Shown here in pieces: positions 8,916 through 52,104 of a stretch of DNA of 52,343 bases. Origin of the DNA: Patescibacteria group bacterium (GTDB taxonomy: Bacteria > Patescibacteriota > Patescibacteriia > Magasanikbacterales > GWA2-37-8). The stretch is from contig SCQK01000002.1 of assembly GCA_004321885.1 (NCBI GenBank), forward strand, positions 1-52,343, written 5' to 3'. The translations under genes were made by a program, and so were the position numbers. The notes beneath the pieces are model-generated. The model did no database searches. It saw only the letters and a program-made list of their open reading frames with translations, and was not told the origin of the DNA. How positions within the stretch are numbered: position 1 is the first letter of the stretch; each line of letters opens with the position of its first letter.

Positions 8916-8917
8916 AG

Positions 8918-9005: not shown

Positions 9006-9150
9006 AATGAATTTTTTAAATTTATCTAAATGTTTTTTATTATTTGTTCCAATAAGTTCAAAGTATGTTTTTACATCCGACAATGATCCTACCTTAACAC
9101 TCCACTTATTAAACCGCTCGGACAATATTCCGTATTTATTAAAAAATGAC

Positions 9151-9238
9151 TGGCGGAGGGTGCAGGACTCGAACCCGCAAGCCCCTTACGGGACCCCAGT
9201 TTTCAAGACTGGTGCCTTACCATTCGGCGCAACCCTCC
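9151..9238 (-). tRNA. tRNA-Ser (anticodon TGA), type II, CCA encoded
   Basis: Manual fold: acceptor GGAGGGT/ACCCTCC, D arm GCC-GAATGGTAA-GGC, anticodon stem CCAGT/ACTGG with loop CTTGAAA, a long variable arm, T arm GCGGG-TTCGAGT-CCTGC, and 3' GCCA. Confidence 0.8.
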
Positions 9239-10218: not shown

Positions 10219-10225
10219 AAAAAAT

Positions 10226-11685: not shown

Positions 11686-12795
11686 ATGACGCAACCAAAA
11701 ATCCTGATAGTTATAACCAAAGCCGACATCGGCGGAGCCCAAATAGCGGCTCTGCATCTGGCCAAAGGGCTGAAAGCCAAGGGCCTGGCCGTCACCGCGG
11801 CCATCGGCGAGGGCTCTTTTTTGGCGGGCGAACTTAACCAAGCGAATATTCCGATAACGTTTATCAAAAACTTGAAGCGCAGTTTTAACCCCCTTAAAGC
11901 AATTTTTTCTTTTTTTGAATTTAAAAAAATCTTTGACAAAAACGTTTTTGACATTGCCCAGCTCAACAGCTCAAACTCGCTTTTGGCCGCGTTGGCGGCC
12001 AGGCTGGCCAAAAACAAGCCCAGGGTCGTGTTCACCTGGCACGGTTTGTCTTATCTGGACCCGGGCGCAAAAAAAAATTGGCTGATAAAAAAATTCTTTT
12101 CATTGGCTTTCAAAATTCTTCTGCATTTTGTTGATGAAAACGTCTTCGTTTGTCAAACCAACTTGGACCAGGTCAAAAAAACCAAGCTGGTAAAAACCGG
12201 CACAGTGATAAAAAACGGGGTAAAAATAGACGCCTTGGGAACAAAACAGGCGCGAGAATTTTTGGCCAACAAATTGAAAACGAATTTGAGCGGCCAGTTG
12301 CTCGTCGGTTCCATTGGCCGTCTATCCGAGCCGAAAAATTACGAATATTTTATAGAAGAGATGGCCGAGGTCAGAAAAATTCTGCCCGCAGCGGTTGGCG
12401 TCATCATCGGCGAAGGGCCCGAGCGCGCCAAATATGAAAATTTAATCAAAAAACTGGACTTGGCCAAAAATTTTTTTCTGGCCGGCGAAATCGCCCACGC
12501 CAGCCGCTATCTCCCGGCCTTTGATTTATTCATTCTCACTTCTTTGTACGAGGGCTCGTCCATCACTTTGGCCGAGGCCATGGCCTGCGGCGTGCCCATT
12601 GCCGCCAGCGCCACCGGCGGCACGCCCGAAACCGTGAGTGGCAAAGGGCAAATTTTTCCATTGCAAAAAGGGCGGCTCGCTCAAATTATCATGGCCGCAG
12701 CCAAACAGCCCAAACAAGAAAAAATGCCGGCGCAAGCCGACACCACTGTTGCCATGACTCTCGGGTATTTGAAGCTATTCAATCTTTCATCCTAA
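11686..12795 (+). CDS. Glycosyltransferase family 4 (GT-B, retaining)
   Basis: 369 aa with a C-terminal EX7E-type motif region (FILTSLYEGSSITLAEAMACGVPIAAS). Confidence 0.75.
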   Translation: MTQPKILIVITKADIGGAQIAALHLAKGLKAKGLAVTAAIGEGSFLAGELNQANIPITFIKNLKRSFNPLKAIFSFFEFKKIFDKNVFDIAQLNSSNSLLAALAARLAKNKPRVVFTWHGLSYLDPGAKKNWLIKKFFSLAFKILLHFVDENVFVCQTNLDQVKKTKLVKTGTVIKNGVKIDALGTKQAREFLANKLKTNLSGQLLVGSIGRLSEPKNYEYFIEEMAEVRKILPAAVGVIIGEGPERAKYENLIKKLDLAKNFFLAGEIAHASRYLPAFDLFILTSLYEGSSITLAEAMACGVPIAASATGGTPETVSGKGQIFPLQKGRLAQIIMAAAKQPKQEKMPAQADTTVAMTLGYLKLFNLSS

Positions 12796-13561
12796 AAAGA
12801 CTCGCTAAAAAGGCTTGCGCGCATCTTAAAATCCATTTCAAGCAGGCCATAAAAAAATTCGGGTACTGTCTTCTAAACCTGATAACCAGCTTAAAACTAT
12901 TTACTACTTGTTTTCTATTTTTTACGGCCGTTACGCCGCGCGGATTTAGCCGATATTTCAAGCCAAAAAAAGGCAGGTTCTTAAATTTATAAAACTGCCC
13001 GAGGCGCAGCCAAAGGCCGTAATCCTCAACATATTTTTCTTTCTCATCATACAGGCCGCATTTAACGGCGGCTTCTTTTTCCATCATTATTCCGGAATGC
13101 AAAAATTGATTTTTAATCAGTATTTTTTTTCTGATATCTCCGTCATTTTCGCTAAATTCAATTTTGCCGGCCGCCTCGCCCTTTTCGCTTGTCAACAACG
13201 CTTTTACCCCAACCAAGCCGTAATCCGGGTTATTGGCCAAAAATTCCGCCTGCTTTTTTATTTTATCATGGTCCAGCCATTCATCATCGCTGTCAATTCT
13301 GGCCAAAAACAAACCGCGCGCTTGTCTTACCCCATGGTTCAGCGCTCCCGCCAGACCGATGTGGTTTGAAAAATTAATTATTTTAATCCGCTTGTCAATT
13401 AAAGAAAATTTATCGGCTATTTCCAACGACCCGTCTGTTGAACCGTCGTTCAAAATTAAAATTTCCAAATCTTGATACGACTGGCTTAAAACGCTTTGGA
13501 TGCTTTTTTCTAAATAAGCTTCGCCGTTATAGACCGGCAAAAGCACGGTAACCGTCGGCAT
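12779..13561 (-). CDS. Glycosyltransferase family 2
   Basis: 260 aa with a GT-A N-terminus (VTVLLPVYNGEAYLEKSIQSVLSQ...LILNDGSTDGS) and DxD/DSDD motifs. Confidence 0.8.
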   Translation of the reverse strand: MPTVTVLLPVYNGEAYLEKSIQSVLSQSYQDLEILILNDGSTDGSLEIADKFSLIDKRIKIINFSNHIGLAGALNHGVRQARGLFLARIDSDDEWLDHDKIKKQAEFLANNPDYGLVGVKALLTSEKGEAAGKIEFSENDGDIRKKILIKNQFLHSGIMMEKEAAVKCGLYDEKEKYVEDYGLWLRLGQFYKFKNLPFFGLKYRLNPRGVTAVKNRKQVVNSFKLVIRFRRQYPNFFMACLKWILRCAQAFLASLFRMKD

Positions 13562-13565: not shown

Positions 13566-14426
13566 TTATATTTTTATCCACTCCGAAGGCAGTAAATCCC
13601 CGGCATCAATATCAGCGGCGACCAGCCAGCGGCCGGGCGCCACCACGATTTTTTTCTCATTCTGATTCAGCCAAGCCGCCCACCAGCTAAAAGTGCTGTT
13701 GGCGATTATTTGATGTTTGCACAAACTCATCAGCGCCAGCTCCTCGGCCGCTCTTAGCGATGGCCGGGAAACAAAAACCATCGGCTCATCAAATTTCAAA
13801 CTATCCTTGGCCCAGGCGATGTCATCCGAGAACACGAAAATTTTAAGCGGCGCGTATTTTTTCCTGACCTCGGCCAGCCCTTTTTGGTAATAATTTACAT
13901 CGCATAAGCCGTTCCAGTCCAAGCAGGAAGCGGCGTAATCGCCGCGGCGAATATGAACGGCGACCGCATTGGGCGTCTGCTCAATTTCTCTTGCCAGCGC
14001 CTGCGCTTCGCCGGAATATTCCCGCAAAACAAAATCAGCTAATAAAATGCCTCTGATAGAATCAAAATATTTATAACTCTGAAAATAACCGCTTAAAAAA
14101 ACGGCTTTTTTCTTTTTGAGCAGGCGCGAATTGAAGCGATAAAAATAATTTCTGTTCCAGCGGCCCCTTATTTTTTTCGCGAATTGATTAAGGCGAGCCA
14201 ACAGGCCGTTGCCCTGGGCCTTTTTTATTTCTTCAACGGTCGCTTTGTTCAAGTTCACCTTAAATCCGTCAATTTCCAAATCTCTCGGCGTCTCTCCGAT
14301 CCGGCTATGGCCAAACCACGACAGGTCAAATTTCAGCGGAGCGCCCCAATCCAAAGACAGGCGCCGGCCCAAGGCGTATTGAAACATCTGATTGCCCAGT
14401 CCGGCGCTTAGCCGCATTATTATCAT
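13566..14426 (-). CDS. Glycosyltransferase family 11 (alpha-1,2-fucosyltransferase-like)
   Basis: 286 aa with the hallmark GT11 motif I (GLGNQMFQYA) and the motif HIRRGDY. Confidence 0.75.
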   Translation of the reverse strand: MIIMRLSAGLGNQMFQYALGRRLSLDWGAPLKFDLSWFGHSRIGETPRDLEIDGFKVNLNKATVEEIKKAQGNGLLARLNQFAKKIRGRWNRNYFYRFNSRLLKKKKAVFLSGYFQSYKYFDSIRGILLADFVLREYSGEAQALAREIEQTPNAVAVHIRRGDYAASCLDWNGLCDVNYYQKGLAEVRKKYAPLKIFVFSDDIAWAKDSLKFDEPMVFVSRPSLRAAEELALMSLCKHQIIANSTFSWWAAWLNQNEKKIVVAPGRWLVAADIDAGDLLPSEWIKI

Positions 14427-14875
14427 GTCAGCAAATTATTTTTCCGCAAAAATTTGGCGTGAATGGGAATGGTTTTTTTCGGCAGTTTCTTAAAAAAATC
14501 AAACCGTGGCGCCTGGCCCCGGCCGGCCGGAAGCAAATTCTTCGGCCTGACCAAAAAAACCATACTGACCGTGTGTCTTTTTTTACCGGCCTGAACCTCG
14601 CGCAAAAATTCCATAAAGCCCAACAGCTTCACCGGTTCCACCGCCAAACCGGTTTCCTCTCGCGCGATTCTCTGGAGCGCCCGGCTGATTGTCTCGCGCC
14701 ACCTTAGCCGGCCGCCGGGCAAATGCCACTGATTTTTGTACGGCTCGATGGCGCGCCAAGTCAAAAGAACGCCGCGCTGATTTTTGACAACCAAATCAAC
14801 GCAAACCCGCGGCGCGCGGCTGTAAATAAAATTATAATCCTTGTCACTTAGCCAAGACTGTTTCCGCTTGTTCAT
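14423..14875 (-). CDS. Nudix hydrolase, GDP-mannose mannosyl hydrolase (Gmm/NudD)-like
   Basis: 150 aa with a modified Nudix box (HLPGGRLRWRETISRALQRIAREETGL) resembling the Gmm variant GGRxxxxETxxxAxxRxxxxELG. Confidence 0.65.
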   Translation of the reverse strand: MNKRKQSWLSDKDYNFIYSRAPRVCVDLVVKNQRGVLLTWRAIEPYKNQWHLPGGRLRWRETISRALQRIAREETGLAVEPVKLLGFMEFLREVQAGKKRHTVSMVFLVRPKNLLPAGRGQAPRFDFFKKLPKKTIPIHAKFLRKNNLLT

Positions 14876-17018
14876 ACTTATTTTTTTTGGCCGCCTCCAC
14901 CTGGGCCGCCACCCACTCGTACATTTTGGCCATGCCCTCGCGCAGGGACAGAGACGGAGCCCAGCCGAGCTTTTCCCGTATCAATTTATTGTCGGAATTG
15001 CGGCCGCGCACCCCCTCGGGCCCCGGGATATTTTTAATGGTTAATTTTTTTCCGGAAAAATCAATCACCATTTGCGTCAATCCGTTTATGGAAACCATTT
15101 CTTCAGACCCGATATTGAGCGGCCCGCCAAAATCAGAATCCATAAATCGGCGCACCCCCTCTAGGCAGTCGTCTATATAAAGAAAAGAGCGGGTCTGTTT
15201 GCCGTCGCCCCAAATCTCCACCACCCCGCCATCGGCAGCCTCGGCCACTTTGCGGCAAATGGCGGCCGGCGCTTTATCGCGCCCGCCTGTCCAGGCGGTT
15301 TCCGGCCCAAAGACATTGTGAAAACGGGCCACGCGCACCGGCAAACCATAATTGCGATTGTTGGCAAAATACAGCCGCTCGCTGAACAATTTTTCCCAGC
15401 CATAATCGCTGTCTGGCAGGGCCGGGTAAGCCGACTCTTCGGCGCAATTCGGGTTGGCCGGGTCCTGCTGATTAAAGCGCGGATAAATGCAGGCCGAAGA
15501 CGAATAAAAAATCTTTTTCGCGCCGGTTTTAGGCGCGAAATGCGCCATATTCAAATTTATCTGGGCCGAATTATGCATGACATCGGCGTCGTGTTCGCCC
15601 GTAAAAATATAGCCAGCTCCGCCCATATCAGCGGCCAACTGGTACACCTCGTCAAAATCCGCGGCCAAGACTTTTTGACACACCGCCGGGTCGCGCAAAT
15701 CGCCGAGCACAAATTCATCGGCCGCGGTCTGGCTGAACTCCGGATATTTCAAATCCACCCCGCGCACCCAAAAACCCTCGCCCTTTAATTTCTTCACCAG
15801 ATGACTGCCGATAAAACCGCCGGCCCCGCAAACCAAGGCTTTTTTGTTTGGCATAAATTTAATAGTTAAGTTTTTCGCGTAAAACTTTTTTACGATAAAA
15901 TTTTTTAATTTGATAGGCCAGTCCTTGTCCATGCACGGCTTTTCAAAAATCAGGTAGAAAATGCCGGTGATTAGTAAAATCGGAAGCGTCAGCAGTAGTA
16001 TCTGCAAAATGATATTAACCGCGTAACTGCTGGTTAAGCTCCAAAAAACAGTGGCATTGCCAAAGCCGGAGATGACGACCGTATGCGTCAGATACATAGA
16101 GTAGCACATCCCACCGATGCCGGCAATAATCTTGTTGCCCAGTATTTTCTTGAGCAAATCATCGGTCAAAAACAGATAAACCAAAAGAAATAACGACGTT
16201 AAAAAAATACTCTTGCCGATAAAATTATCAACGTCAATAAACACCAAAACGACAAAAGCCAGCCCGCTGGCGGCCAGCGCCAGTTTGAACGGAATCTTGG
16301 GCGCTGGTTCAGACACGTAAAAGTCGGCTATTAAAAATCCGATTAAAAAATAAAAAAGATAATTATAAAGCCAGATAAAGCCGATCTTGAAGTATAAATT
16401 CAAAAACGGAATCAAAAATATCAGAATAATGAGCAGGGGCCGCCTGATTTGTTTGCCCAGGCGAAAGACCTGGGCCAAAAGCGGGGCCACCAGATAAAAT
16501 TGCACCTCAATTTCCAATGTCCAGAGCAAAACCCCGAGCATGGAAAAGCCGGCCACCGGAATAACATTATGAAGATAGAAAAAATTTAAAATCAAGCCGG
16601 GCCACAACTCGGAAAAAGTATGCTCGCCTTTGATAAGATAAAGCAGAAAAAAAATAATCAGGGCCGCGAAATACGGCGGCTCCAGTCTGGTCAGGCGCCG
16701 TAGATAATATTTTCTTAAAACCGGCTTTTTCGCCGAGGCCAAAAAATGCTTGGCGAACGGCAGGGCCAGAATAAAACCGCTAAGCACGAAAAAAATCTGC
16801 ACGCCCTTGAATCCGTTTTTCAAAAAAATATCCAAAAGGCTGTTGACCGTATCATATTTCACGGGCGACTTGGTGAGGAAAAAATTGTTGATATGATAAA
16901 AAGTGACGATGGCGATGGCGATGAAGCGCACGCCGTCAACTTCCGGAATATAAAAATGCGACGTGGTGGTTCGCCTCAATCTGTCAAATAATTTATTCAA
17001 CGCAACGCGTCCATTCAT
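14844..17018 (-). CDS. Fusion: N-terminal acyltransferase-3 (OafA/NolL-like membrane O-acyltransferase) plus C-terminal NAD-dependent sugar epimerase (GDP-mannose-3,5-epimerase/CDP-sugar epimerase-like SDR)
   Basis: 724 aa single ORF. Residues 1-390 are polytopic with an acyltransferase-3 signature (VDGVRFIAIAIVTFYHI...). Residues 393 onward begin MPNKKALVCGAGGFIGSHL, with YxxxK (YGWEK) and a full SDR epimerase fold. An internal ATG at 15852 could make this two genes, but no stop separates the domains. Confidence 0.6.
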   Translation of the reverse strand: MNGRVALNKLFDRLRRTTTSHFYIPEVDGVRFIAIAIVTFYHINNFFLTKSPVKYDTVNSLLDIFLKNGFKGVQIFFVLSGFILALPFAKHFLASAKKPVLRKYYLRRLTRLEPPYFAALIIFFLLYLIKGEHTFSELWPGLILNFFYLHNVIPVAGFSMLGVLLWTLEIEVQFYLVAPLLAQVFRLGKQIRRPLLIILIFLIPFLNLYFKIGFIWLYNYLFYFLIGFLIADFYVSEPAPKIPFKLALAASGLAFVVLVFIDVDNFIGKSIFLTSLFLLVYLFLTDDLLKKILGNKIIAGIGGMCYSMYLTHTVVISGFGNATVFWSLTSSYAVNIILQILLLTLPILLITGIFYLIFEKPCMDKDWPIKLKNFIVKKFYAKNLTIKFMPNKKALVCGAGGFIGSHLVKKLKGEGFWVRGVDLKYPEFSQTAADEFVLGDLRDPAVCQKVLAADFDEVYQLAADMGGAGYIFTGEHDADVMHNSAQINLNMAHFAPKTGAKKIFYSSSACIYPRFNQQDPANPNCAEESAYPALPDSDYGWEKLFSERLYFANNRNYGLPVRVARFHNVFGPETAWTGGRDKAPAAICRKVAEAADGGVVEIWGDGKQTRSFLYIDDCLEGVRRFMDSDFGGPLNIGSEEMVSINGLTQMVIDFSGKKLTIKNIPGPEGVRGRNSDNKLIREKLGWAPSLSLREGMAKMYEWVAAQVEAAKKNKYEQAETVLAK

Positions 17019-18010
17019 AGCCCGACAATAGCCAGCAGTTTCTCCGCCGACCTTAGGTCGCTTAACTGCTCTTCCACATAGGCCCGGGGGTCAAAGCGCT
17101 TTAATACCCGCAAAAATTCCTCCAAAATCGCGGGCAATTCGGCAAAATCCGCAAAGGTCATGCCGCAACGCTCGTTTAGGTAAGGACAACTGATATTTTT
17201 CGCGCACCAAAAATAATTATTGTATTCATAACGCCCCCGGTCCCACACCAGGGTGGGCACGTTTCTGGCCCAGGCTTCCTGCAAGGCCAGGCCCTGGCTT
17301 TCGGACAAAGAAAAATAGAGCATGGCCTTGGCCTGATTCAGCTCGCGAAAATAATCTGCCTGCTTATAATCATCATAAAAAATAAACCCTACCGGGTATT
17401 TTATCTGCGCTCGCTCGGAAGTGAAAGCTTCGCTTTCGCTTCTCTCGCTTCGCTTGATAATAAATTTATAGGAAAGCGCGGCTAACGCGTTTTTGAGCGC
17501 TTGCAGTTCGCCGCCGGACAATGAATTTTTAACAAAAACTAAAATTTTCTCCCGCCGGTTGTTTGTTATTTCGGGCACGCGCACGCCGGCCGGCCAAACC
17601 TTAATTTTTTCAGACAAGCGCGGGCTGATGGACAGATAAAAATCCCTCACCCAGTCGGACGGCTGTAAAATCAGGTCAATTTCCGGCGCATTGATGATGC
17701 CCCCGCCATCATTAGGGGTAACAACCAAATTCGGGCCGGCCACTAACTTCTTAAATTTTTTTCTTTCTTTTATCGCCCACTGCAACGTTTCCAAACTGCC
17801 ATTGACAAAAACTGTGTCTTCCGGCTTTATCTCCGTTGATTTGACATTTAACAAATACGGGCGTTTAAGTTCGTCCAAACCGCGCAACAAACTATCCATG
17901 ACCGCGTCCGGCCCCCTTTTCACCCCAGCCAATCGCCGCAGAACGCGCCAATAAATCTCTTTGGAAAAAAGGCCGGCCTTGGGAGATTTTGTCAATATAA
18001 TTAGAGACAC
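17015..18010 (-). CDS. GT4-like glycosyltransferase (C-terminal GT-B domain with an EX7E motif)
   Basis: 331 aa with an ESQGLALQE motif (E-x7-E) followed by AWARNVPTLVWD, resembling the donor-binding GT4 signature. The N-terminal half is unassigned. Confidence 0.5.
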   Translation of the reverse strand: MSLIILTKSPKAGLFSKEIYWRVLRRLAGVKRGPDAVMDSLLRGLDELKRPYLLNVKSTEIKPEDTVFVNGSLETLQWAIKERKKFKKLVAGPNLVVTPNDGGGIINAPEIDLILQPSDWVRDFYLSISPRLSEKIKVWPAGVRVPEITNNRREKILVFVKNSLSGGELQALKNALAALSYKFIIKRSERSESEAFTSERAQIKYPVGFIFYDDYKQADYFRELNQAKAMLYFSLSESQGLALQEAWARNVPTLVWDRGRYEYNNYFWCAKNISCPYLNERCGMTFADFAELPAILEEFLRVLKRFDPRAYVEEQLSDLRSAEKLLAIVGL

Positions 18011-18011
18011 A

Positions 18012-20015
18012 CTATTTTTTTTGCTTTGTCAAAGAAGCCAAATCAAGCACAAAAATTTTACCATCGTCAAAAATTCTTTTTCTTGATTGCCCCAATTCTT
18101 TCAAATTATCGTTAAAATCAAAGGTTACCTTGGCGCCATTGCTTATCCAAATGTTGGTCGCGAGCCTAACAGTATCGCCGTATTTTGATTGGGGGAAAAC
18201 CTCGGTCGCGTAAGCAAAAATCACATATCTGATATCCTTTGCCAACAAATATCGCGCCAGCGCTTCGCCGCCCTGATACGAAGGCATGCCCGGTGGCAAA
18301 GACGCCCCGCCCGGCAAATCAATAATATAAATTTTATTGCGCCTAAAATCAAACAAAAAAGGCTTTTCGGTCCTGGCCAGGGCTGTTCGCGTCGGCGGAA
18401 CCGCCTCTTGCGCTTTTTGATAGCTAATCCTTTCCTCGGCCGTGGAAGTGAAGTCTCCGCTTATTCTCTGGCCGGCCAGCGCGATTTTCAAGGACACGAA
18501 CTGCCTGTCGGCCAGATGAGAACCAATTAATCCAAGATTATTTTTAATGGCCGGTAAAAAAGCCGACAAACCGGCCCCAAAAATAATGGCGCTCACGGCT
18601 AAAGCCACCCGCTCGTATTTCCAAGAAGTTAAATAACCCCGCCAATTTTCAGATTGGCCGGCAAAAATAACCAAAAGCAAAATAACGGCCGTATGAACTA
18701 TGGGAAAGGTATAATAAAAAACGCTAAGCCCGGCGGTGAGAAAGGCAATGGCCGCGACGGTCAAAACAGTGGCCCAAATAATCAATTTCAGACGGCGGCG
18801 CAACCCGTCGTTATGGGGCCCGGGCAGAGATTTCCAAACAAACAAGAGCAAAAAAAATAAAATAATAAACAGGACATTGGCCAGATTATATAATAATGTA
18901 AGCAAATTAGCGAAAGTGAGCCGTGAGTAAGGCAGGGCGTAGACCCCGTAAACAGAGCCGTGAAAGCCCTTGCCGAAAATCGGATAAAGCAGAGTGCCGG
19001 AAGACTGATACAATAAAATCATCCACGGCAACAATAAAACAAAGGCGGCTAAAGCGGAAACGAGCAGCGATTTGAGCGCGACTATTTTTTCCGCGCGCGA
19101 GACGGATTCGCGATAAGACAGCCAATGATAAAAAATAAAATAAAAAAAACCAATGACGATAACATTTGATTTTATGGAAGACAGCGCGGCGATGATAAGG
19201 GCGACAAACAGCGCACGCCGCCAAAATCCGGGCCGTTCGGATTTGGCTTCAAAAAATAACTGCCCGAAAACCAAAAGCAAGACCGTGGAGGTTATCTGTC
19301 CGGTAATATTGCACGAGGCCGCAGAAAACAGGGCCAAAGAACCGGTGGCCAAAGCGGCCGTTCTCCGGGACGCGCCGAATTTCCTGAACAATTCCCAGAC
19401 CAACAAAATTAAAACAAGCCAGCTGAGGCCGCGGTCAAATAAATTCAAATAATCATACGGCAAAACCGCCAACACAAATGTATCCAAAAAAGACTGCCCG
19501 CCCAAGGCCCCGGTGAGCCGCCGGTCGCTAAACGGCTGGGCGCCCAGGGCGCCGGTTTCCAGCATCTCGCCGCTGTAAACAAAATAGGCCTGGTAATCAT
19601 CAAGCGGGTTGGCAGGCGTGTAGGCCGCGACAATGTATTGATAAGACAGGATCAAGACAAGGCCGATAAAAAGCAGGGCAAAAATTTTATCTTTCTTAAA
19701 GTCGTTAAATAATTTTGCCATGTTGGCGCCAGTGACGCGCCAGCGGCGCAAAACAAAAAACAATAATAAAATGACGCCCAAACCTAAATAAATAATGACT
19801 GCTTTTGGCGAGACGGCCGAGAGCCAATTCATCACGCCGCCGACAATAAGGCTTAGCGCCAAACCAAGAGCGGCCTTAAATCCCAAACCGTGTTTTTGGC
19901 GCGGCCGCAACAAAGAAAGCGCGGCCCAGCCCCAGCCGAGCAGGGAAAAGAAAATAACCACCCCCCATAATAAAGAAAAAATTCCGGTCCTAAACATAGC
20001 TACGTTTTCAAACAC
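18012..20015 (-). CDS. Large polytopic membrane protein, putative GT-C fold glycosyltransferase (ArnT/PMT-like) or polymerase
   Basis: 667 aa with at least 12 predicted TM helices and a roughly 200-aa soluble C-terminal domain. It lies directly downstream of a DPM1-like GT2 polyprenyl-phosphate sugar synthase. Confidence 0.45.
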   Translation of the reverse strand: MFENVAMFRTGIFSLLWGVVIFFSLLGWGWAALSLLRPRQKHGLGFKAALGLALSLIVGGVMNWLSAVSPKAVIIYLGLGVILLLFFVLRRWRVTGANMAKLFNDFKKDKIFALLFIGLVLILSYQYIVAAYTPANPLDDYQAYFVYSGEMLETGALGAQPFSDRRLTGALGGQSFLDTFVLAVLPYDYLNLFDRGLSWLVLILLVWELFRKFGASRRTAALATGSLALFSAASCNITGQITSTVLLLVFGQLFFEAKSERPGFWRRALFVALIIAALSSIKSNVIVIGFFYFIFYHWLSYRESVSRAEKIVALKSLLVSALAAFVLLLPWMILLYQSSGTLLYPIFGKGFHGSVYGVYALPYSRLTFANLLTLLYNLANVLFIILFFLLLFVWKSLPGPHNDGLRRRLKLIIWATVLTVAAIAFLTAGLSVFYYTFPIVHTAVILLLVIFAGQSENWRGYLTSWKYERVALAVSAIIFGAGLSAFLPAIKNNLGLIGSHLADRQFVSLKIALAGQRISGDFTSTAEERISYQKAQEAVPPTRTALARTEKPFLFDFRRNKIYIIDLPGGASLPPGMPSYQGGEALARYLLAKDIRYVIFAYATEVFPQSKYGDTVRLATNIWISNGAKVTFDFNDNLKELGQSRKRIFDDGKIFVLDLASLTKQKK

Positions 20016-20018: not shown

Positions 20019-20798
20019 TTAAACAACCGGCCGCTCATATTTTTCATAAGAACGCAAACCAGCCTTATGCAATAGATACTGGCAAACCGACTTCATTATT
20101 AAAGCCGCGTATTTTAGGCCGTTGACATAACAGATTTCATCGCCGTAATACGTCGGAATCGGCAATTCCACGATTTTTAGCCCGCGGTCCACGAATTGAA
20201 TGATAATCTCGCTGTCAAAATGATAATCGCCGGTATTTTTTTGAAAGTTAACCATTCGCAAAGCCTTGGTGGTATAGGCGCGATAGCCGGAGTGCCACTC
20301 GGACAGCCTGGCGCCGGTGGCCAAATTTTCCAAAAAAGTCAAAACCTTATTGCCGACGTATTTATAAAAAGGCATGCCCCCGCGCCGGGCCGCGCCTCTT
20401 ACAAGCATGCGCGAGCCAAAAACCGCGTCGGCCTTTTCCTCAATCAGCGGCGCCAAAATGGCCGGCAGCATCTCGGGCGCGTACTGCCCGTCGGCATGAA
20501 GCATCACCACGATATCATAGCCTTTTTTGATGGCGTAGGCATAGCCAAGCTTTTGATTGCCCCCGTATCCTTCGTTGGCTTGATTGCGGAAAATGCTTAA
20601 CTTGTCCAGGCCGGCTTTTTGCTTCCAATCCTCGGCCACCAGATTGGTGTTATCCGGCGAAGCATTGTCAAAAATCATAATTTCCTCCACTATATTTTTA
20701 ACGCCGGCCGGGATGCGGTCAAGCACTTTGGTGATGGTGGAAGCGGCGTTATAAGCCACAATCAGAATGGCGACTTTTTTTTGCATAAACAATGGCAA
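20019..20798 (-). CDS. GT2 polyprenyl-phosphate glycosyltransferase (dolichyl-phosphate mannose synthase / ArnC-like, soluble type)
   Basis: 259 aa with a GT-A N-terminus (VAILIVAYNAASTI...) and the motifs DNASPDNT and DADGQ. Confidence 0.7.
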   Translation of the reverse strand: MPLFMQKKVAILIVAYNAASTITKVLDRIPAGVKNIVEEIMIFDNASPDNTNLVAEDWKQKAGLDKLSIFRNQANEGYGGNQKLGYAYAIKKGYDIVVMLHADGQYAPEMLPAILAPLIEEKADAVFGSRMLVRGAARRGGMPFYKYVGNKVLTFLENLATGARLSEWHSGYRAYTTKALRMVNFQKNTGDYHFDSEIIIQFVDRGLKIVELPIPTYYGDEICYVNGLKYAALIMKSVCQYLLHKAGLRSYEKYERPVV

Positions 20799-20799
20799 T

Positions 20800-21699
20800 T
20801 TAATTGAGTAAACGACTATTTGGTTGCATTCTCGCCAGTATGTCGGAAAAAATATTTTCCAGACTATTAAATTGAAACTGAAATGTTTCTTGCGCCGCTT
20901 TTGAATTAGTGGAATTTAAGAGCGGCCGGCGGGCAACCTGCCCCAACAATTTCGTTTCCACCGGGATTATTAAGTCTTTGTTCCAGCCCATAAATTGACA
21001 AATTTTTACAGCAAAGTCATAGCGGCTCATGGATTCGTTGCCGGTAGCTAGAAACGTGCCGTTGAGCGCGGCGCTTAGCGTTTTTTTAAGCAACCGGCAA
21101 AAATCCATCACATAGGTGGGATTGCTGATTTGGTCCAAGGGCACGCGCATTTCCCGGCCCTCTTTCTGCTTGCGGTAGAGTTGCATAAAAAAATTCATGC
21201 CGTTGTCATCCCAGCCGTATATAACCGTGGGCCTAAGGATGATATGATTTTTTAAGGCCGACACTATTTTTTCTCCGGCCAGTTTGGTTTGGCCGTAATA
21301 TTGCAGGGGATTGGGGCAGGCGCTCTCGTCAAAATCGCCCTTGACACCGTCAAAAACATAATCCGAGGAGATAAAAATTATTTTCTTGTCATTTTGATTT
21401 GCCCATTCCGCTAACATCTTAACCGGGGCGATATTTTGCCTGTCGGTCAGCTCTTTTTCTTGCTCACATTTTTCCACATCAGAGAGCGCGGCCAGATGCA
21501 CGATTTCATCCGGATTAAAACCGCGCAAAACCTCAACCATAGCCTGTTTATCGCTGATGTCAACGACCGCGTCAACAACATTGCTTTTGCTGGCGCGGTC
21601 AACGCCAAAAACGTAGAAATTTTCATCTGACTTTAAAATTTTATACAGATTTTTTCCGACAAACCCGCCGGAACCGGTAATGAGTATTTTTTTAGCCAT
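20800..21699 (-). CDS. dTDP-4-dehydrorhamnose reductase-like SDR (RmlD-like)
   Basis: Start trimmed to MAKKILITGSGGFVGKNL (ATG at 21699). This start overlaps the rmlC-like stop in an ATGGCTAA arrangement. It is about 300 aa with an RmlD-like architecture. Confidence 0.6.
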   Translation of the reverse strand: MAKKILITGSGGFVGKNLYKILKSDENFYVFGVDRASKSNVVDAVVDISDKQAMVEVLRGFNPDEIVHLAALSDVEKCEQEKELTDRQNIAPVKMLAEWANQNDKKIIFISSDYVFDGVKGDFDESACPNPLQYYGQTKLAGEKIVSALKNHIILRPTVIYGWDDNGMNFFMQLYRKQKEGREMRVPLDQISNPTYVMDFCRLLKKTLSAALNGTFLATGNESMSRYDFAVKICQFMGWNKDLIIPVETKLLGQVARRPLLNSTNSKAAQETFQFQFNSLENIFSDILARMQPNSRLLN

Positions 21700-22147
21700 G
21701 TTTGATGTCCCAGTTGTAATTAATGTCTTTGGTAGACGGGTCAATGCGAATTATTTCATCCTGGTCGTGCGGCTCGGTGGCGCAATTGGCGACGATGGCT
21801 TCTTCCGAACCGACGCCCTTAAAACCATTCACCACTCCGGCCGGCACCCGCACCAGGCAATAATTCTTGTCGCCCATAAATATCTCCTGTATCTCGCCCC
21901 TTGTTTCGGAATCAGGCCTTTGGTCTGCCAAAACCAGTTTGATATTGCCGCGGACAACCGCGTAATGCAAAGCCATTATTTTGTGCAAATGCCAGGCCTT
22001 TACGGCCCCGGGATAAACAGTGGAAAAATAAATTTCCCCGAATTTTTCAAATTCCGGGTCGTCGTTTCTTAGCATGTGCATCACCGAGCCCCTTTCATCG
22101 CAAATTTTACTTAGCGGTTTGATGATGACGCCTTTAATCATACACAA
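21692..22147 (-). CDS. dTDP-4-dehydrorhamnose 3,5-epimerase-like cupin (RmlC family)
   Basis: 151 aa cupin with an RmlC-like core (GEIYFSTVYPGAVKAWHLHK...). Confidence 0.65.
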   Translation of the reverse strand: MCMIKGVIIKPLSKICDERGSVMHMLRNDDPEFEKFGEIYFSTVYPGAVKAWHLHKIMALHYAVVRGNIKLVLADQRPDSETRGEIQEIFMGDKNYCLVRVPAGVVNGFKGVGSEEAIVANCATEPHDQDEIIRIDPSTKDINYNWDIKHG

Positions 22148-22164
22148 AATTAGTGAATAAAAGT

Positions 22165-23226
22165 TTACGTTTTTGGTCCGCGTTTTTTTATGATAAAATA
22201 ATTTTGTTTTAGCATCTCCAAAATTTTTATTTTTTTAAGTGGCCGGTATAGCTTGGCCATAAATCTTTTCACAGCCGTCCGCCTTCTCGCACGCCGGCCC
22301 GCCAGTCTTTCGTTTTTTTCCAGCTCCAAGGCCTTGGCGGGATTAATTGTCCTACGTTTGGCCGCGGGGAGCGGCTGGTCTATAATATTTCTTAGAAAAT
22401 CTTCAAAACCTTGTTTCACTTTTTCAAAATCAGCGCCCGGCGCGACAATGGGCTGATTAATTATTTCTAAATACAGGTCGTCATCGTTGTCTATTTCTTT
22501 AACGCGCGCCACCACCCGGTCAAAACTCTCATAATTATGACAACTGATAAAACGGCGGTCGTTAAACTCGCGGCCGATCTCGGGGTTGCCCCAATAAATC
22601 GGAATGGTTCTGGCCGCGATGGAGCTGGCTATTTTCTCGGTAGTGTAGCCCAAGCGGGAAGAATTTTCAAAAGCAATGGAAAATTTATGCTTGGACTCAA
22701 AATCCAATTTGCTTTCAATTATTCCGCCGACATTATTCAAATAACGGCCGCCGGCGCTTATTTTTTTATACTGGCTCAGCTTATCAAAAAAATTTTTGCG
22801 CCTTTCATCGGCCAAATAATTGGAATACACAAAACTGCAAAATTCGGTTTTTTGGGCCAAATCGGCCCTGGTAAACGGCTCTGGTTTGGTAAAATCCGGG
22901 CCAATGCGAGCCGCCTCATTCTTGTCGTAGAATACCATGACATGATAAAGCGGATAGCGGTAGTATCTGTCTCCAAAAATCATGTAATCATAGCCGACGG
23001 CGTAGTCGCACAAATTAAAATTCGGGCTCACATTTTCGCCGGTATAAAATATCCTGACGCAATTATACTTCAAATATTTGTAGGACGACTCATTGTAAAA
23101 TACGTAATCCGGCTTTTCGGAAATTTCAACGTCGTAATATTTTATCAGTATTTTGTATATAAAATTATCGCGAAAATCCTGTTCGCTGTCGTCGTAGCCG
23201 CAAATTTTAACGCGTATTTTTCTCAC
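22165..23226 (-). CDS. Glycosyltransferase family 10 (alpha-1,3/4-fucosyltransferase-like)
   Basis: 353 aa containing the GT10 signature KFSIAFENSSRLGYTTEKI (consensus YxFxLxFENSxxxxYxTEK) and a FutA-like N-terminal motif (IFYTGENVSPNFNLCDYAVGYD). Confidence 0.75.
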   Translation of the reverse strand: MRKIRVKICGYDDSEQDFRDNFIYKILIKYYDVEISEKPDYVFYNESSYKYLKYNCVRIFYTGENVSPNFNLCDYAVGYDYMIFGDRYYRYPLYHVMVFYDKNEAARIGPDFTKPEPFTRADLAQKTEFCSFVYSNYLADERRKNFFDKLSQYKKISAGGRYLNNVGGIIESKLDFESKHKFSIAFENSSRLGYTTEKIASSIAARTIPIYWGNPEIGREFNDRRFISCHNYESFDRVVARVKEIDNDDDLYLEIINQPIVAPGADFEKVKQGFEDFLRNIIDQPLPAAKRRTINPAKALELEKNERLAGRRARRRTAVKRFMAKLYRPLKKIKILEMLKQNYFIIKKRGPKT

Positions 23227-23233
23227 AAAATTG

Positions 23234-24169
23234 TCATTTAATAATGGCGATTATTTGACTCAAATACCGCGGGTCAACGCAATCATCCGGATTTCTTTCA
23301 TGAATCTCGTTAAAATATTTATACTTTACCTTTTCTTGTTTCTCGGCCTTTCTTAAAAACATTTCGTATTCCATGTCAAGATGGCCAATATCAATAACCC
23401 GGTATCCCAATAAAAATAAATCATACGCCAATACCTTGGCAGTCGGACCCAAGGACAACAAAATTAACTTGTCTTTGCCGATTTTTGCCGCTTCATTTTT
23501 AATCGCTTCGTACTTATCAAAGGCGTTTTCGGGCGGACACAGTATTCTGTGCAATGATTTAACGCGACTAAACATATCGTTTCCCACGCCCAGCCGGCTT
23601 TTTGCGCCCTCAATTAGCGCCACGTCCTTCCCTTCCCAAATGAAAAATAATTTTTGAAAAGTATTCTGACAGCCGGATTTATCCTTAAAAGCCAGGTAAA
23701 AACGGGTCATATTCATGTTGCCGTATAGACGGTCGTAGGACAACAAACTCTTCCAGACATGCCCATACCTATACAAATGATGCATACTAAACCAAAAAGC
23801 GTAATCTTCCAGTCCGTTCAATTTTTCCCACATGCCCGGAATACAAATTAACAACCCGTCCAAATTTGATTGCAAAATCTGCTCCAGTCTCGCGGCTAAT
23901 TGCGCGTCCTGCTTTTGAAACCCCAAATCAATGCCGTCTAACAACGATATTTCGCCGTCGCCGAAACGGATAATCGAAAGATTTTTTTCAATTATCAAAT
24001 CAATGGTTTCATTAACAGACAGCACTTTGGGCCGTTGGCGATTTGGTCTGAAATAAATATTAAAATAATACAACACAAAAGCAATGACCGGGCCGATTTT
24101 GTGCCGAATGGCCAAAGGCGTCCTTTGCCGTATTTTTTGAAGAATAGATTGAAGCAAGGATTTTTTCAC
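23234..24169 (-). CDS. Putative GT-D type glycosyltransferase (DUF1792-like)
   Basis: 311 aa with an N-terminal TM helix and a DxE-type motif (IRFGDGEISLL) resembling the metal site of DUF1792/GT-D enzymes. The assignment is weak. Confidence 0.35.
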   Translation of the reverse strand: MKKSLLQSILQKIRQRTPLAIRHKIGPVIAFVLYYFNIYFRPNRQRPKVLSVNETIDLIIEKNLSIIRFGDGEISLLDGIDLGFQKQDAQLAARLEQILQSNLDGLLICIPGMWEKLNGLEDYAFWFSMHHLYRYGHVWKSLLSYDRLYGNMNMTRFYLAFKDKSGCQNTFQKLFFIWEGKDVALIEGAKSRLGVGNDMFSRVKSLHRILCPPENAFDKYEAIKNEAAKIGKDKLILLSLGPTAKVLAYDLFLLGYRVIDIGHLDMEYEMFLRKAEKQEKVKYKYFNEIHERNPDDCVDPRYLSQIIAIIK

Positions 24170-27431: not shown

Positions 27432-28702
27432 AACTGAGGCTCTTTAATTCTTTTGTAATAGAGATACCAAAGCAGGACAACGATAATAAACATCTCCAAA
27501 GATTTGAAAGCAAAAAGCGTCATCATGGGCTGACTGCCGAAGATGGGAAAGAGCAGCCACTGGGATATGGACAAATAAAACAGGGCCTGTAAAAGAAAAT
27601 CATAAGCCGTAGACAAAGCCGGACGCATGTTCCAATAAGCGGTGAACATAAATAAATAATAAAGCCCATTATGCAGACCAGAAGCGGTGGGAAAAAATGA
27701 AACAAAAAACATTAAAGTCCCGAACTCCAGCAGAATTAAACTATTGTCGGCATCCGCTATTTTTTTTATCCTATTCATTCTATAGGTCAAGTAATAAAAT
27801 GCCGCGGAAATAATTAAAATAAGCGTCAGCGCAATAGTCTGCGCTTGGGAAAGGCTTAGTAAGTGATAGGTAAAACGATTATAAAACAGGCCCCCCAAAC
27901 TAGCGCTCCACCCGCCGGCATTGATTGAATCAGCGCCGAAACTGAACGTGGCGGCCATAAAATCCGTCAGCATGTCAAAACCAAACCACAACGTGAAAAA
28001 AGCCAGAAAAACCAGGGTGGAGTAAAAAACCGTTTTATTCTTGATGAAAAAATACGGCAGAAAAACTATCGGCATTAACTTGAACATGATGGCGGCGGCC
28101 AAAAGCAAGCCGGTAATTTTATATTTCTTTTTCAAATAGAACAGCAAACACAAGGAAAGCAAAAATATGACCGGCACATTTGTCTGCCCGTGGTCAAGAT
28201 GAAGAAAAAAGAACGGCGAAAATAAAAAAACCAAAGCGGCAATGATAAAATACCACATTTTCTTGCGCATGAAACTGCTTAAAATATAAATGGACCACAT
28301 AAACAGCGCTATCGTAAACATGCTATAGACAATCAGGGAAACATAAAAAGGAAGCAGGCTGAAAGGGATGAAAAAATAGGCCATGAGCGGGGGATAAACA
28401 AACTGAACAATAAAATGGGGCAGTGAAAGTTCGTTGGGATTGGGCTCGTTGGGCGAGGCGAAATAAAAATTCTTGCCCTGGCTCGCTTTCAAGCCAGCGT
28501 AATAGAAGAAATGATAATCTGAACCGCCGAGGCCGCGGCTAACGCTCGGCGAGAAAAGTTGGCGGTTGTCCAGTTGCAGGGGATACCAGCCGAAAACAGC
28601 CGTAATCACGAATAAAAAAACCAGCCCGCCCAAATAAAGGGCGAAAAACGGCGACCGTAGCCAGGTCTCTTTTGGCGATTCTTGATTTTCGTTAAGCATC
28701 AT
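27413..28702 (-). CDS. Polytopic membrane protein, putative GT-C-like glycosyltransferase (DUF2029/GT87-like) or O-antigen polymerase-like
   Basis: 429 aa with 10-12 TM helices and a conserved loop (SDYHFFYYAG). It lies downstream of gtrA/gtrB in the position of a GtrC-type transferase. Confidence 0.4.
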   Translation of the reverse strand: MMLNENQESPKETWLRSPFFALYLGGLVFLFVITAVFGWYPLQLDNRQLFSPSVSRGLGGSDYHFFYYAGLKASQGKNFYFASPNEPNPNELSLPHFIVQFVYPPLMAYFFIPFSLLPFYVSLIVYSMFTIALFMWSIYILSSFMRKKMWYFIIAALVFLFSPFFFLHLDHGQTNVPVIFLLSLCLLFYLKKKYKITGLLLAAAIMFKLMPIVFLPYFFIKNKTVFYSTLVFLAFFTLWFGFDMLTDFMAATFSFGADSINAGGWSASLGGLFYNRFTYHLLSLSQAQTIALTLILIISAAFYYLTYRMNRIKKIADADNSLILLEFGTLMFFVSFFPTASGLHNGLYYLFMFTAYWNMRPALSTAYDFLLQALFYLSISQWLLFPIFGSQPMMTLFAFKSLEMFIIVVLLWYLYYKRIKEPQLCPAIK

Positions 28703-30009
28703 ACGTAACCCCTTAAAAATTCATTAAAACATTCCACCACATACTCCAGCATCTCTTTGTTCAATCCCGGATAACAACCCACCCAAAAAGTGTTGTTCAT
28801 GATGAAATCAGTATTTTTTAAATCGCCGACAACGCGGTAATTGATTTTATTGTCTATAAAATATGGCTGCTTCAATAGATTGCCGGCGAACAAATAACGG
28901 GTGGCAATATTATATTCCTGCAAAAACCGTACCAGCTGGTCGCGATTAAACGGCGCGTCTTCTTTGACAGTCAGCAAAAAGCCAAACCAGCTTGGCTCGG
29001 CCTTTTCTTCCCACACAGGCAAAACAAAATATTTTTCGTATTTTTTCAGGCCATCATATAAAATCTGAAAATTTTCCCGGCGCCTCTGTATAAAATCGTC
29101 AAGCTTCTCCAACTGGGCCACGCCAATGGCGGCTTGCAGGTCAGTCGGCTTCAAGTTATACCCGATTTCCGAATAAATATACTTGTGGTCATAGCCAAAC
29201 GGCAACTGGCCCAATTGCCAGCCAAATCTCATGCCGCAGGTGTTATCATGCCCGGTTTTACAGCAGCAATCCCTGCCCCAGTCTCTGATAGACCTGATAA
29301 TTTTGTTGAGCAGAGGGTCGTTCGTAAACACGGCCCCGCCTTCACCCATAGTGATATGGTGCGCCGGGTAAAAACTCAAGGTCGCCAGATGTCCAAAAGT
29401 GCCGGTTCGCTGGCCGTTAAAAGTTGACCCGAGGGCGTCGCAGTTGTCTTCTATCAGCCACAAATCTTTTTCTTTGCATAACTTTACGACAGCGTCAAGA
29501 GCAAACGGGTTGCCCAGAGTATGGGCAATCATAATGGCCCTGGTTTTTGGGCCGAGGGCTTTTTTAATTTCTTCAATGCTCGCGTTATAAGTTCCCAATT
29601 CCACGTCAACAAAAACCGGAACCAAGCTATTTTGAATTATCGGATTGACAGTGCTGGGGAAACCCGCGGCCACTGTAATAACCTCATCGCCGTCTTTTAA
29701 TTTCTTATTCCCTAATCTGGGAGACCGCAAAGCCGCGACCGCCAAGAGGTTGGCCGACGACCCGGAGTTGGTAATATTCACATACGGCACTCCCAGCCAG
29801 CGGCCGAGCCTGGCTTCAAATAAGTCGGAAAATCTTCCCTCGGTCCACCAGCCATCTAGAACCGCTTCGGTCGCCAGCAAAATTTCTTTTTCGTCAAAAA
29901 CTTTTCCAGAAATGGGAATCGATGTTTCTCCAGGAATAAATTTTTTAAACGGAAATTTTTCCCTATACTCTTGAATCAGCCTACTCTTCAATTCTTCGTT
30001 CATAAACAA
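28699..30009 (-). CDS. ddhC: CDP-6-deoxy-D-xylo-4-hexulose 3-dehydrase (E1; PMP-dependent DegT-fold dehydrase with [2Fe-2S] site)
   Basis: 436 aa DegT/DnrJ/EryC1 fold in which the Schiff-base Lys is replaced by His (FYPAHHITMGEGGAVFT). A Cys cluster (RDWGRDCCCKTGHDNTC) follows. These features and the length (about 437 aa) are diagnostic of E1/RfbH rather than an aminotransferase. Confidence 0.85.
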   Translation of the reverse strand: MFMNEELKSRLIQEYREKFPFKKFIPGETSIPISGKVFDEKEILLATEAVLDGWWTEGRFSDLFEARLGRWLGVPYVNITNSGSSANLLAVAALRSPRLGNKKLKDGDEVITVAAGFPSTVNPIIQNSLVPVFVDVELGTYNASIEEIKKALGPKTRAIMIAHTLGNPFALDAVVKLCKEKDLWLIEDNCDALGSTFNGQRTGTFGHLATLSFYPAHHITMGEGGAVFTNDPLLNKIIRSIRDWGRDCCCKTGHDNTCGMRFGWQLGQLPFGYDHKYIYSEIGYNLKPTDLQAAIGVAQLEKLDDFIQRRRENFQILYDGLKKYEKYFVLPVWEEKAEPSWFGFLLTVKEDAPFNRDQLVRFLQEYNIATRYLFAGNLLKQPYFIDNKINYRVVGDLKNTDFIMNNTFWVGCYPGLNKEMLEYVVECFNEFLRGYV

Positions 30010-52103: not shown

Positions 52104-52104
52104 G

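Follow-up and report, generated by a model that had tools for sequence, protein, structure and literature searches.

Several described systems resemble parts of the locus that we analyse here. Among them are the GT10 fucosyltransferase FucT/FutA of Helicobacter pylori (PDB entries 2NZW, 2NZX, 2NZY and 5ZOI), whose genes are scattered lipopolysaccharide genes, the GT11 enzymes of the type of Escherichia coli O55 WbgN, and the E. coli colanic-acid GDP-fucose cassette, which has the gene order gmd-fcl-gmm(wcaH)-manC. A further counterpart is GDP-mannose 3,5-epimerase (GME), exemplified by the Arabidopsis enzyme 2C59 and, in bacteria, by GM35E of Methylacidiphilum fumariolicum, which is linked to lipopolysaccharide (PMC8787198). 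Genomes of the Patescibacteria, or candidate phyla radiation (CPR), encode many glycosyltransferases, and gmd and rmd occur among the auxiliary genes of CPR phages (PMC12911398); our literature search found no paper joining these bacteria with fucosyltransferases or GDP-fucose, and a recent perspective on Patescibacteria biology does not mention glycans. Here we examine a stretch of 52,343 nucleotides (the window), the whole of contig SCQK01000002.1 from a Patescibacteria metagenome-assembled genome (MAG; GCA_004321885.1), which carries one GT10 gene, two GT11 genes that we call GT11a and GT11b, and a gene for GDP-L-fucose synthase (Fcl).

With moderate confidence, we propose that these fucosyltransferase genes belong to a Wzx-dependent surface-glycan cluster of about 43 kb, an expanded version of a module that recurs in the CPR with interchangeable supply cassettes, and that its enzymes would attach L-sugars by the mechanism outlined below. 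Our analysis establishes family membership, catalytic residues, fold, synteny and phylogeny; the donors, the linkages, the order of steps and the final carrier we infer from family chemistry. The cluster extends over 9.3-52.1 kb of the window between two tRNA-Ser genes and one tRNA-Ala gene, and nearly all of its genes lie on the minus strand and are glycan-related. It encodes 12 glycosyltransferases (a GT4, five GT2, two GT11, GT10, GT-D, a GT4-like enzyme and a GT87-like GT-C), a Wzx flippase, GtrA, an Acyl_transf_3 domain, and methyltransferases of the FkbM, DUF268 and class I types. Its supply cassettes comprise UGDH with a short-chain dehydrogenase/reductase (SDR), RmlC-like and RmlD proteins, and RfbF/RfbG/RfbH with three radical S-adenosylmethionine (radical-SAM) enzymes and a C-methyltransferase-like enzyme; the remaining enzymes are a NeuB-cupin protein, a HAD protein, a thiamine pyrophosphate (TPP) enzyme and Fcl. 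An independent Logan assembly of SRR8426592 has the same gene order.

The GT10, GT11 and fcl genes

The genes at the centre of this proposal, with the tRNA gene that adjoins fcl, are as follows.

22165..23226, minus strand: GT10 glycosyltransferase, 353 aa, GTG start (Pfam, PDB match and AlphaFold2 model)
22633..22671, minus strand: GT10 signature FENSSRLGYTTEK, residues 186-198 of GT10
13566..14426, minus strand: GT11a, 286 aa; PF01531 at 114.7 bits; orthologous to the GT11 in the core of CPR clusters
39175..40062, minus strand: GT11b, 295 aa; PF01531 at 118.3 bits; preceded by a DUF268 methyltransferase and Wzx
51144..52103, minus strand: Fcl, GDP-L-fucose synthase, 319 aa (NF047922 and PDB 1BWS)
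52104..52177, minus strand: tRNA-Ala(GGC), right-hand boundary of the cluster; its end lies 1 nt ahead of the fcl start codon

The GT10 protein (TAN34183.1) is deposited as 'hypothetical protein EPN28_00380'. Its two Pfam domains (PF00852/PF18025) both score above their gathering thresholds, FucT_N at 101.2 bits (E = 4e-29, cut-off 27.2) and Glyco_transf_10 at 65.3 bits (cut-off 23.9), and the signature that the initial annotation had reported at 22165-23226 is literally present, as is the sequence YTGEN at residues 61-65. The top PDB match is the H. pylori alpha-1,3-fucosyltransferase 2NZW (E = 3.7e-44), in an alignment that places E64, R143 and N188 of the window protein on H. pylori E95, R195 and N240, and Y194, E197 and K198 on Y246, E249 and K250. 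Across 34 CPR homologs these six active-site positions are kept, apart from E/D and K/R exchanges in a small number of them. An AlphaFold2 model (pLDDT 84.6, pTM 0.80) gave 2NZX as a Foldseek match with E = 2e-22 and TM-scores of 0.66-0.69 to 2NZX, 2NZW and 2NZY, followed after the H. pylori structures by human FUT9 and plant FUT13 and FUT11; as modelled, the protein has a GT-B fold of two Rossmann domains that is superposable on solved GT10 enzymes.

The window GT10 and H. pylori FucT thus agree in the two-domain fold, the YTGEN glutamate, the FENS...Y.TEK motif and the full set of six donor and catalytic residues, and each is a soluble protein whose basic C-terminal tail is helical. They differ in that sequence identity reaches only 28-30%, the tail of the window protein is a different one (a conserved basic two-helix element, LY(R/Q)PFKK...LE..K..YF) with no heptad-repeat region, and its gene has no poly-C tract and lies in a Wzx cluster next to a GT-D partner. 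We predict that GT10, which belongs to a Patescibacteria-specific clade, is an inverting transferase that attaches L-fucose (or L-galactose) in alpha-1,3/4 linkage.

Both GT11 proteins lie far above the PF01531 gathering cut-off of 23.9 bits, so that, as with GT10, the family assignments of the initial annotation hold against the profile thresholds. The motifs GLGNQMFQYA and HIRRGD that it had noted occur in both, together with STFSWWAAWL, although the two proteins are only 36% identical to each other. The GT11 proteins had no PDB match by sequence, and no NCBIfam model matched them or GT10. PF01531, GLGNQMFQYA, HxRRGD and STFSWW are all shared with the GT11 enzymes of the E. coli O55 WbgN type, and in the window as in the bacterial clusters that contain such enzymes the GT11 genes are found in Wzx-type clusters beside genes for GDP-L-sugar supply. 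GT11a is paired with GME, unlike the WbgN-type GT11 enzymes, which accompany gmd/fcl or colitose genes.

Fcl matched NF047922 with 473.9 bits (E = 2e-142, model positions 2-304 of 308), and its top PDB match was the E. coli GDP-fucose synthase 1BWS (390 bits, residues 5-315); all 17 of its PDB matches at E <= 1e-40 are GDP-fucose synthases. A longer open reading frame (ORF) that reaches 52181 would read through the tRNA-Ala gene, so the start at 52103 is correct and the gene stands where it had been annotated. Like the colanic-acid cassette, the window has an Fcl ortholog and a Gmm-like NUDIX hydrolase; unlike that cassette, it has neither gmd nor manC, 36 kb separates its fcl from its NUDIX gene, and the latter follows GME.

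A recurrent module in CPR genomes

We found 3339 homologs of GT10 at E < 1e-5. The best 120 of these are 54-66% identical to it and about 350 aa long, and the named organisms among these 120 are almost always Patescibacteria. A locus scan over GTDB species representatives yielded 80 loci, of which 43 are from the CPR and 37 are not. GT10 of the CPR loci is 53-64% identical to that of the window, and their sources include the complete Wolfebacteria genome CP011209 as well as Magasanik-, Paceibacteria-, Kaiser-, Taylor-, Falkow- and Gracilibacteria. The nearest non-CPR relatives, of similar length and 41-53% identity, are GT10 enzymes of gut Bacteroidales and Lachnospiraceae, and gut Bacteroidales and Clostridia make up most of the non-CPR loci. 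In a neighbour-joining tree rooted on H. pylori, the CPR GT10 sequences (43, from the window and the 42 loci with enough GT10 coverage) form a single clade.

The neighbourhoods of GT10 also differ between the two groups. Within 10 kb of GT10, we counted the following genes; for Fcl and Gmd we used best-assignment BLAST counts and dropped profile counts, which cross-matched other SDRs at 1e-10.

GT-D: 37 of 43 CPR loci, usually directly upstream; 0 of 37 non-CPR loci
GT11: 30 of 43 CPR loci (23 of the 28 with both flanks at least 9 kb long); 1 of 37 non-CPR loci
Wzx: 24 of 43 CPR loci; 1 of 37 non-CPR loci
RfbH: 23 of 43 CPR loci; 4 of 37 non-CPR loci
GT4-like gene: 22-24 of 43 CPR loci; 0 of 37 non-CPR loci
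DUF268: 18 of 43 CPR loci, in all 18 together with GT11; 0 of 37 non-CPR loci
Fcl: 8 of 43 CPR loci; 6 of 37 non-CPR loci
Gmd: 7 of 43 CPR loci; 7 of 37 non-CPR loci
GME: 5 of 43 CPR loci; 0 of 37 non-CPR loci

The usual order in the CPR is [RfbF< RfbG<] RfbH> Wzx> GT2> GT2> (FkbM) GT-D> GT10>, continuing after GT10 with GT4-like> DUF268> GT11> GT2> (GT4 UGDH SDR), where the place before GT11 may be taken by DUF268 or by GME. The gut loci, by comparison, have no GT-D partner and only a single case of an adjacent GT11 gene. We therefore cannot uphold the view of the initial annotation that such a set is unusual in an uncultivated lineage: it is a recurrent syntenic module of the CPR, whose members have already been named automatically as GT10 or alpha-1,2-fucosyltransferase at NCBI. 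In the window the corresponding genes are these.

23234..24169, minus strand: GT-D fold glycosyltransferase (SP_1767 family), directly upstream of GT10; PF08759 at 277 bits
24166..24789, minus strand: FkbM-family methyltransferase; PF05050 at 61 bits
40892..42259, minus strand: Wzx-type flippase with 11 transmembrane segments; PF01943 and PF13440
40071..40895, minus strand: DUF268 methyltransferase (Pfam scan)
17015..18010, minus strand: divergent GT4-like GT-B glycosyltransferase; weak Pfam GT1 match, E = 0.005
11686..13561, both strands: GT4 (plus) and GT2 (minus), the conserved downstream end of the CPR core
20019..22147, minus strand: RmlC-like, RmlD and GT2 genes, inserted downstream of GT10
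18012..20015, minus strand: 667-aa membrane protein with about 11 transmembrane segments and a soluble C-terminal domain

GT-D also exceeds the cut-off of TIGR03728 (301.4 versus 290.75 bits), and a profile of the GT4-like family matched PDB 2JJM at E = 8e-4. In most CPR loci the GT4-like gene directly follows GT10; in the window it has been displaced by the inserted RmlC-like/RmlD/GT2 genes and the gene for the 667-aa protein. This insertion and the second GT11 gene make the window an expanded form of the module.

Supply genes for GDP-L-sugars occur in or beside the cluster in 11 of the 43 CPR loci, including Gmd-Fcl pairs in 7. Their position varies: Gmd> and Fcl> directly follow GT10 in four loci (L022, L023, L030 and L054), and L024 has Gmd>GME>GT11>Fcl consecutively. 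The closest relative of the window is a sister cluster from Hainich groundwater (L089, L090 and L014; 60-86% identity at the protein level), with the order Wzy_C-TPR, Gmd, Fcl, helix-turn-helix (HTH) protein, Wzx, DUF268, GT11b ortholog, RfbF, RfbG. As in the colanic-acid cassette, gmd and fcl are adjacent in the sister genome; its Gmd (573 bits against a cut-off of 415) is encoded directly upstream of an Fcl to which the window Fcl is 67% identical. More generally, the related clusters come from groundwater and sediment MAGs. One locus titled 'uncultured Gammaproteobacteria' (L009, CAYHSR010000032.1) has GT2, FkbM, GT-D and GT10 proteins that are 63-79% identical to those of the window, and is probably a mis-binned CPR contig.

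A tree of GT11 proteins groups them by type of neighbourhood. GT11a joins the GME-adjacent GT11 proteins of L012 and L014, to both of which it is 60% identical, inside a large CPR clade with DUF268-GT11-GT2 neighbourhoods. GT11b joins a Desulfosporosinus sequence and the Fcl-adjacent GT11 proteins of L020 and L024; it has a handful of close CPR relatives (73-47% identity) and then a broad swarm at 40-45% from cyanobacteria, methanogens and Firmicutes. Judged by these sequence relationships, the two GT11 genes have different histories.

Proposed mechanism and the supply of GDP-fucose

In the mechanism that we propose, two routes would start from GDP-D-mannose: Fcl and a Gmd encoded off this contig would make GDP-beta-L-fucose, and the GME domain of a 724-aa fusion protein would make GDP-beta-L-galactose. 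GT2, GT4 and GT-D enzymes would build a lipid-linked oligosaccharide at the cytoplasmic membrane face, to which the inverting GT-B enzymes GT10 (alpha-1,3/4) and GT11a and GT11b (alpha-1,2) would add L-sugars; in GT10, E64 would serve as the base, and R143 and K198 would bind the diphosphate. The neighbours of the GT11 genes suggest that GT11b serves the fucose branch (sister-genome order Gmd-Fcl-HTH-Wzx-DUF268-GT11b) and that GT11a serves an L-galactose branch (GME-NUDIX-GT11a). Methyl- and acetyltransferases would decorate the unit, and Wzx would then flip it outward. For GT10, we infer transfer of L-fucose in alpha-1,3 or alpha-1,4 linkage from family membership and from the adjacency of Gmd and Fcl in 7 orthologous loci. 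The earlier idea of a surface glycan with several L-sugar residues is supported.

Several points weigh against the proposal. Fcl falls below the equivalog cut-off of NF047922 (473.9 versus 500 bits), as does, at 462 bits, the sister-genome Fcl, which is encoded just after a true Gmd. Profile searches and tblastn found no gmd or gmd remnant in the window: the best TIGR01472 score was 57.8 bits against a cut-off of 415, and tblastn with CPR Gmd hit only an SDR paralog of 25% identity. Profile scans of the contig ORFs found no manB or manC on the contig, and no initiating phosphoglycosyl transferase. With gmd, manB and manC missing from the contig, the supply of GDP-fucose in this genome is unproven. 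The activities and linkages of the CPR GT10 and GT11 enzymes are predictions. Assigning donors from neighbourhood is weak, since the majority of CPR loci lack a supply gene within 10 kb; the contrast between CPR and non-CPR neighbourhoods is partly biased by a locus scan that used peptide patterns from the CPR clade itself; and the MAG taxonomy labels of several loci, L009 for example, are unreliable.

The absence of gmd from the contig may be due to the assembly, which stops just past the tRNA-Ala gene abutting fcl: the contig ends 166 nt beyond the tRNA, and the 2.7-kb Logan contig that carries fcl also stops just past it, about 150 nt upstream of fcl. Gmd itself is widespread and abundant in Patescibacteria, and a search with the sister Gmd returned a flat swarm of Patescibacteria Gmds that are 71-78% identical. 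Where the window has tRNA-Ala the sister genome has gmd, a difference that could stem from rearrangement, or from an assembly that broke where a tRNA is repeated. Two candidates for a gmd gene of the same genome were rejected: TAN32666.1, a Gmd from the same submission batch, has an accession about 1500 before TAN34183.1 and so probably belongs to another MAG, and P0243 comes from another sample.

The GME fusion and alternative readings

Upstream of GT11a, the cluster contains a GME that had been missed in the initial annotation, followed by a NUDIX hydrolase and then GT11a.

15861..17018, minus strand: Acyl_transf_3 membrane O-acyltransferase domain, N-terminal half of the 724-aa fusion, about 8 transmembrane segments; PF01757 at 110.5 bits
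14844..15860, minus strand: GME domain, C-terminal half of the fusion; match to PDB 2C59
14423..14875, minus strand: NUDIX hydrolase, weakly similar to GDP-mannose mannosyl hydrolase; PF00293 at 63 bits, PDB 1RYA at E = 2.7e-8

We had considered the SDR half of the fusion as an Fcl paralog (102 bits to NF047922), but a PDB search identified it as GME, with a match of 335 bits (E = 5e-99) to the Arabidopsis enzyme 2C59. The domain has all eight key residues in common with that enzyme: the SDR triad S143/Y174/K178, the acid/base pair Cys145-Lys217, and N203, R243 and R306 (residue roles from PMC8787198). By these residues, the SDR half is a genuine GDP-mannose 3,5-epimerase, which would supply GDP-L-galactose or GDP-L-gulose. 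Unlike the Arabidopsis enzyme and M. fumariolicum GM35E, it is fused to an N-terminal Acyl_transf_3 domain and encoded in a CPR glycan cluster. The same fusion recurs in Magasanikbacteria (L004 and L012), L005 has Acyl_transf_3 and GME as two separate genes, and L014 and L090 have a standalone GME.

The GT11 enzymes WbgN and FUT2 accept GDP-L-galactose as well as GDP-L-fucose and GDP-L-colitose, and WbgN is natively a colitosyltransferase (PMC11987014). With a GME nearby and GT11 enzymes able to use its product, L-galactose is a real alternative donor for GT11a. We regard it as possible, though only tentatively so, that one or more of the three 'fucosyltransferases', GT11a being the likeliest, acts in vivo as a transferase for L-galactose or another GDP-beta-L-sugar, fed by the fused GME and making no use of GDP-fucose. 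This would account for a GME with all its catalytic residues two genes upstream of GT11a and for the recurrence of GME-GT11 pairs in L012, L014 and L024; the closest orthologs of GT11a are exactly the GME-adjacent ones, and the GME route needs no Gmd, which the contig lacks. The neighbourhood evidence is circumstantial, however: the GME-adjacent GT11 subclade nests within the DUF268-adjacent clade with no obvious change of motif, Fcl is encoded in the same cluster, and the literature that we examined contains no bacterial GT11 natively specific for L-galactose.

Members of the SP_1767 family, which bears the NCBIfam name 'glyco_access_1' and includes the GT-D partner of GT10, are tied to the glycosylation of serine-rich adhesins. 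The cluster also adjoins pilB-pilC-pilM-pilN-pilO-like genes, and related loci have large Wzy_C (O-antigen-ligase-type) and TPR proteins beside GT10 or Gmd. All three observations would fit a glycan that is O-linked to protein (a type IV pilin, an S-layer protein or another surface protein) rather than a free polysaccharide, and pilin glycosylation has been predicted in Saccharibacteria (PMC11623550). We nevertheless consider a protein carrier unlikely. In the window itself we detected neither a Wzy_C nor an oligosaccharyltransferase-type protein, and the pilus genes are not adjacent in the other loci that we inspected. The 667-aa membrane protein, which we compared with the Wzy_C-TPR proteins of the sister locus as a possible relative, proved unrelated to them and has no Pfam match even at E <= 10.

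The fucose branch might be non-functional in this genome: a rearrangement would have taken gmd away and orphaned fcl, and only other sugars would be in use. The start of fcl abuts tRNA-Ala where the sister genome has gmd, the window holds no gmd remnant, and the NeuB/HAD/TPP/RhaT block is placed differently from the sister genome, which indicates local rearrangement. We judge this very unlikely, given a full-length and well-conserved Fcl, intact GT10 and GT11b with their catalytic residues, two assemblies that end about 150-170 nt past the tRNA, so that gmd may sit on another contig, and the wide occurrence of Gmd in Patescibacteria.

The initial annotation had likened the set to the FutA/FutB/FutC toolkit of Helicobacter, which makes Lewis x/y (or b) mimics by placing alpha-1,3/4- and alpha-1,2-fucose on Gal-GlcNAc (N-acetyllactosamine, LacNAc). 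The same three enzyme families are indeed present, H. pylori FucT is the closest relative of GT10 in sequence and fold among solved structures, and co-clustered GT10 and GT11 are the enzymatic prerequisite for a difucosylated epitope. Among 50 ORFs of the cluster and left flank there was no PF01755/GT25 match at E <= 0.01, nor did the Pfam scan of the cluster ORFs reveal a recognisable LacNAc-forming enzyme, although GT2 enzymes of unknown specificity could still make LacNAc. Beyond family membership nothing supports Lewis mimicry, which we consider highly improbable: GT10 is distant from the H. pylori enzyme in sequence and lacks its heptad repeats, the neighbour-joining tree puts it closer to the gut-anaerobe enzymes and a long way from the H. 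pylori fragment, the fut genes have no poly-C/G slippage tracts (their longest homopolymers are A/T runs of 7-8 nt), GME beside GT11a points to L-galactose, and an environmental CPR organism with relatives in groundwater and sediment has no animal host to mimic.

Other genes of the cluster

The remaining features of the window include further supply genes of the cluster and its left border.

8917..9238, minus strand: two tRNA-Ser genes, left border of the cluster
9337..11617, minus strand: UDP-glucose 6-dehydrogenase family enzyme and SDR epimerase, for supply of UDP-uronic acid
28699..30009, minus strand: RfbH, CDP-6-deoxy-4-keto-hexose 3-dehydrase; NF011936 at 690 bits (cut-off 423)
37364..39162, minus strand: RfbG-like CDP-glucose 4,6-dehydratase (TIGR02622) and RfbF-like glucose-1-phosphate cytidylyltransferase (TIGR02623)

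The left flank encodes SSB, ribosomal protein S6, PilB, PilC, PilM, PilN, a PilO-like protein and YchF. The RfbG-like and RfbF-like proteins score just under their cut-offs, at 195 bits for TIGR02622 and 265 bits for TIGR02623. Genes for CDP-3,6-dideoxyhexoses accompany GT10 in most CPR loci, as the count for RfbH indicates. In a Magasanikbacteria locus (L004, 4618-6543), two SDRs beside GT-D that we had taken as candidates for Gmd and Fcl are a CDP-tyvelose 2-epimerase (508 bits to PDB 9RL0) and a paratose-synthase-like SDR.

Beside RfbF and RfbG, three radical-SAM genes lie in a row (33525-37304, minus strand; SPASM, B12-binding and SPASM types), followed by a methyltransferase with a C-methyltransferase C-terminal domain (32362-33522, minus strand). 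This block is 79-80% conserved in the sister cluster L089, and its composition suggests an unusual C-alkylated CDP-deoxyhexose. The initial annotation had read added O-methylation from FkbM and this class I enzyme. Both methyltransferases are present, but the class I enzyme is more likely to act in CDP-sugar tailoring, because of its C-methyltransferase domain and its radical-SAM and CDP-deoxyhexose neighbours.

Around RfbH, a PgfS/ArnC-like GT2, GtrA and a GT87-like GT-C membrane transferase (27413-31305, minus strand) appear from their families to form a side-branch module that uses a polyprenyl-phosphate sugar; its proteins are 60-82% identical to those of L014 and L090. Between fcl and a RhaT-like permease (46818-51144, minus strand) are genes for a 519-aa NeuB-cupin fusion, a HAD phosphatase and a 574-aa TPP-dependent enzyme, a block that is placed differently in the sister genome and may be a pathway for an ulosonic acid or a branched sugar. 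L008 and L020 alone have weak orthologs of the 667-aa membrane protein, a candidate polymerase or ligase. A second, weak NUDIX ORF (45198-45653, minus strand; 22.7 bits) overlaps plus-strand ORFs and lies beside a 216-aa ORF with no Pfam match (44345-44995, minus strand); the coding status of both is uncertain. GC content is about 0.41 in the centre of the cluster (22000-34000) and 0.50-0.53 in the flanks, a dip that would fit the swapping of cluster segments among CPR lineages.

Implications for Patescibacteria

The surface glycans of Patescibacteria are essentially unstudied, and, for a genome that measures about 1 Mb (984 kb in the complete Wolfebacteria genome of L010), devoting about 43 kb to one glycan cluster represents a heavy investment in the cell surface. 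The locus itself is a predictable member of already annotated families, in a little-studied type of cluster; the more interesting points, both of which we reach by inference, are the lineage-wide GT-D/GT10/GT11 module and the GME-GT11 pairing. A far-reaching interpretation, to which we give a rather low probability, is that a lineage-specific and vertically maintained module (GT-D, CPR GT10, the GT4-like enzyme and GT11) decorates these ultra-small episymbionts, on their surface or pili, with alpha-L-fucose and/or L-galactose, frequently in methylated or acetylated form, with the GME-coupled GT11a as a native L-galactosyltransferase and the product as an epitope for host attachment or phage evasion. 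The GT-D/GT10/GT11 core is a concrete target for lectin and antibody probes, for enzyme assays, and for work on host recognition and phage escape, and the CPR GT10, GT11 and GME genes are a pool of new L-fucosyl- and L-galactosyltransferases for glycan synthesis.

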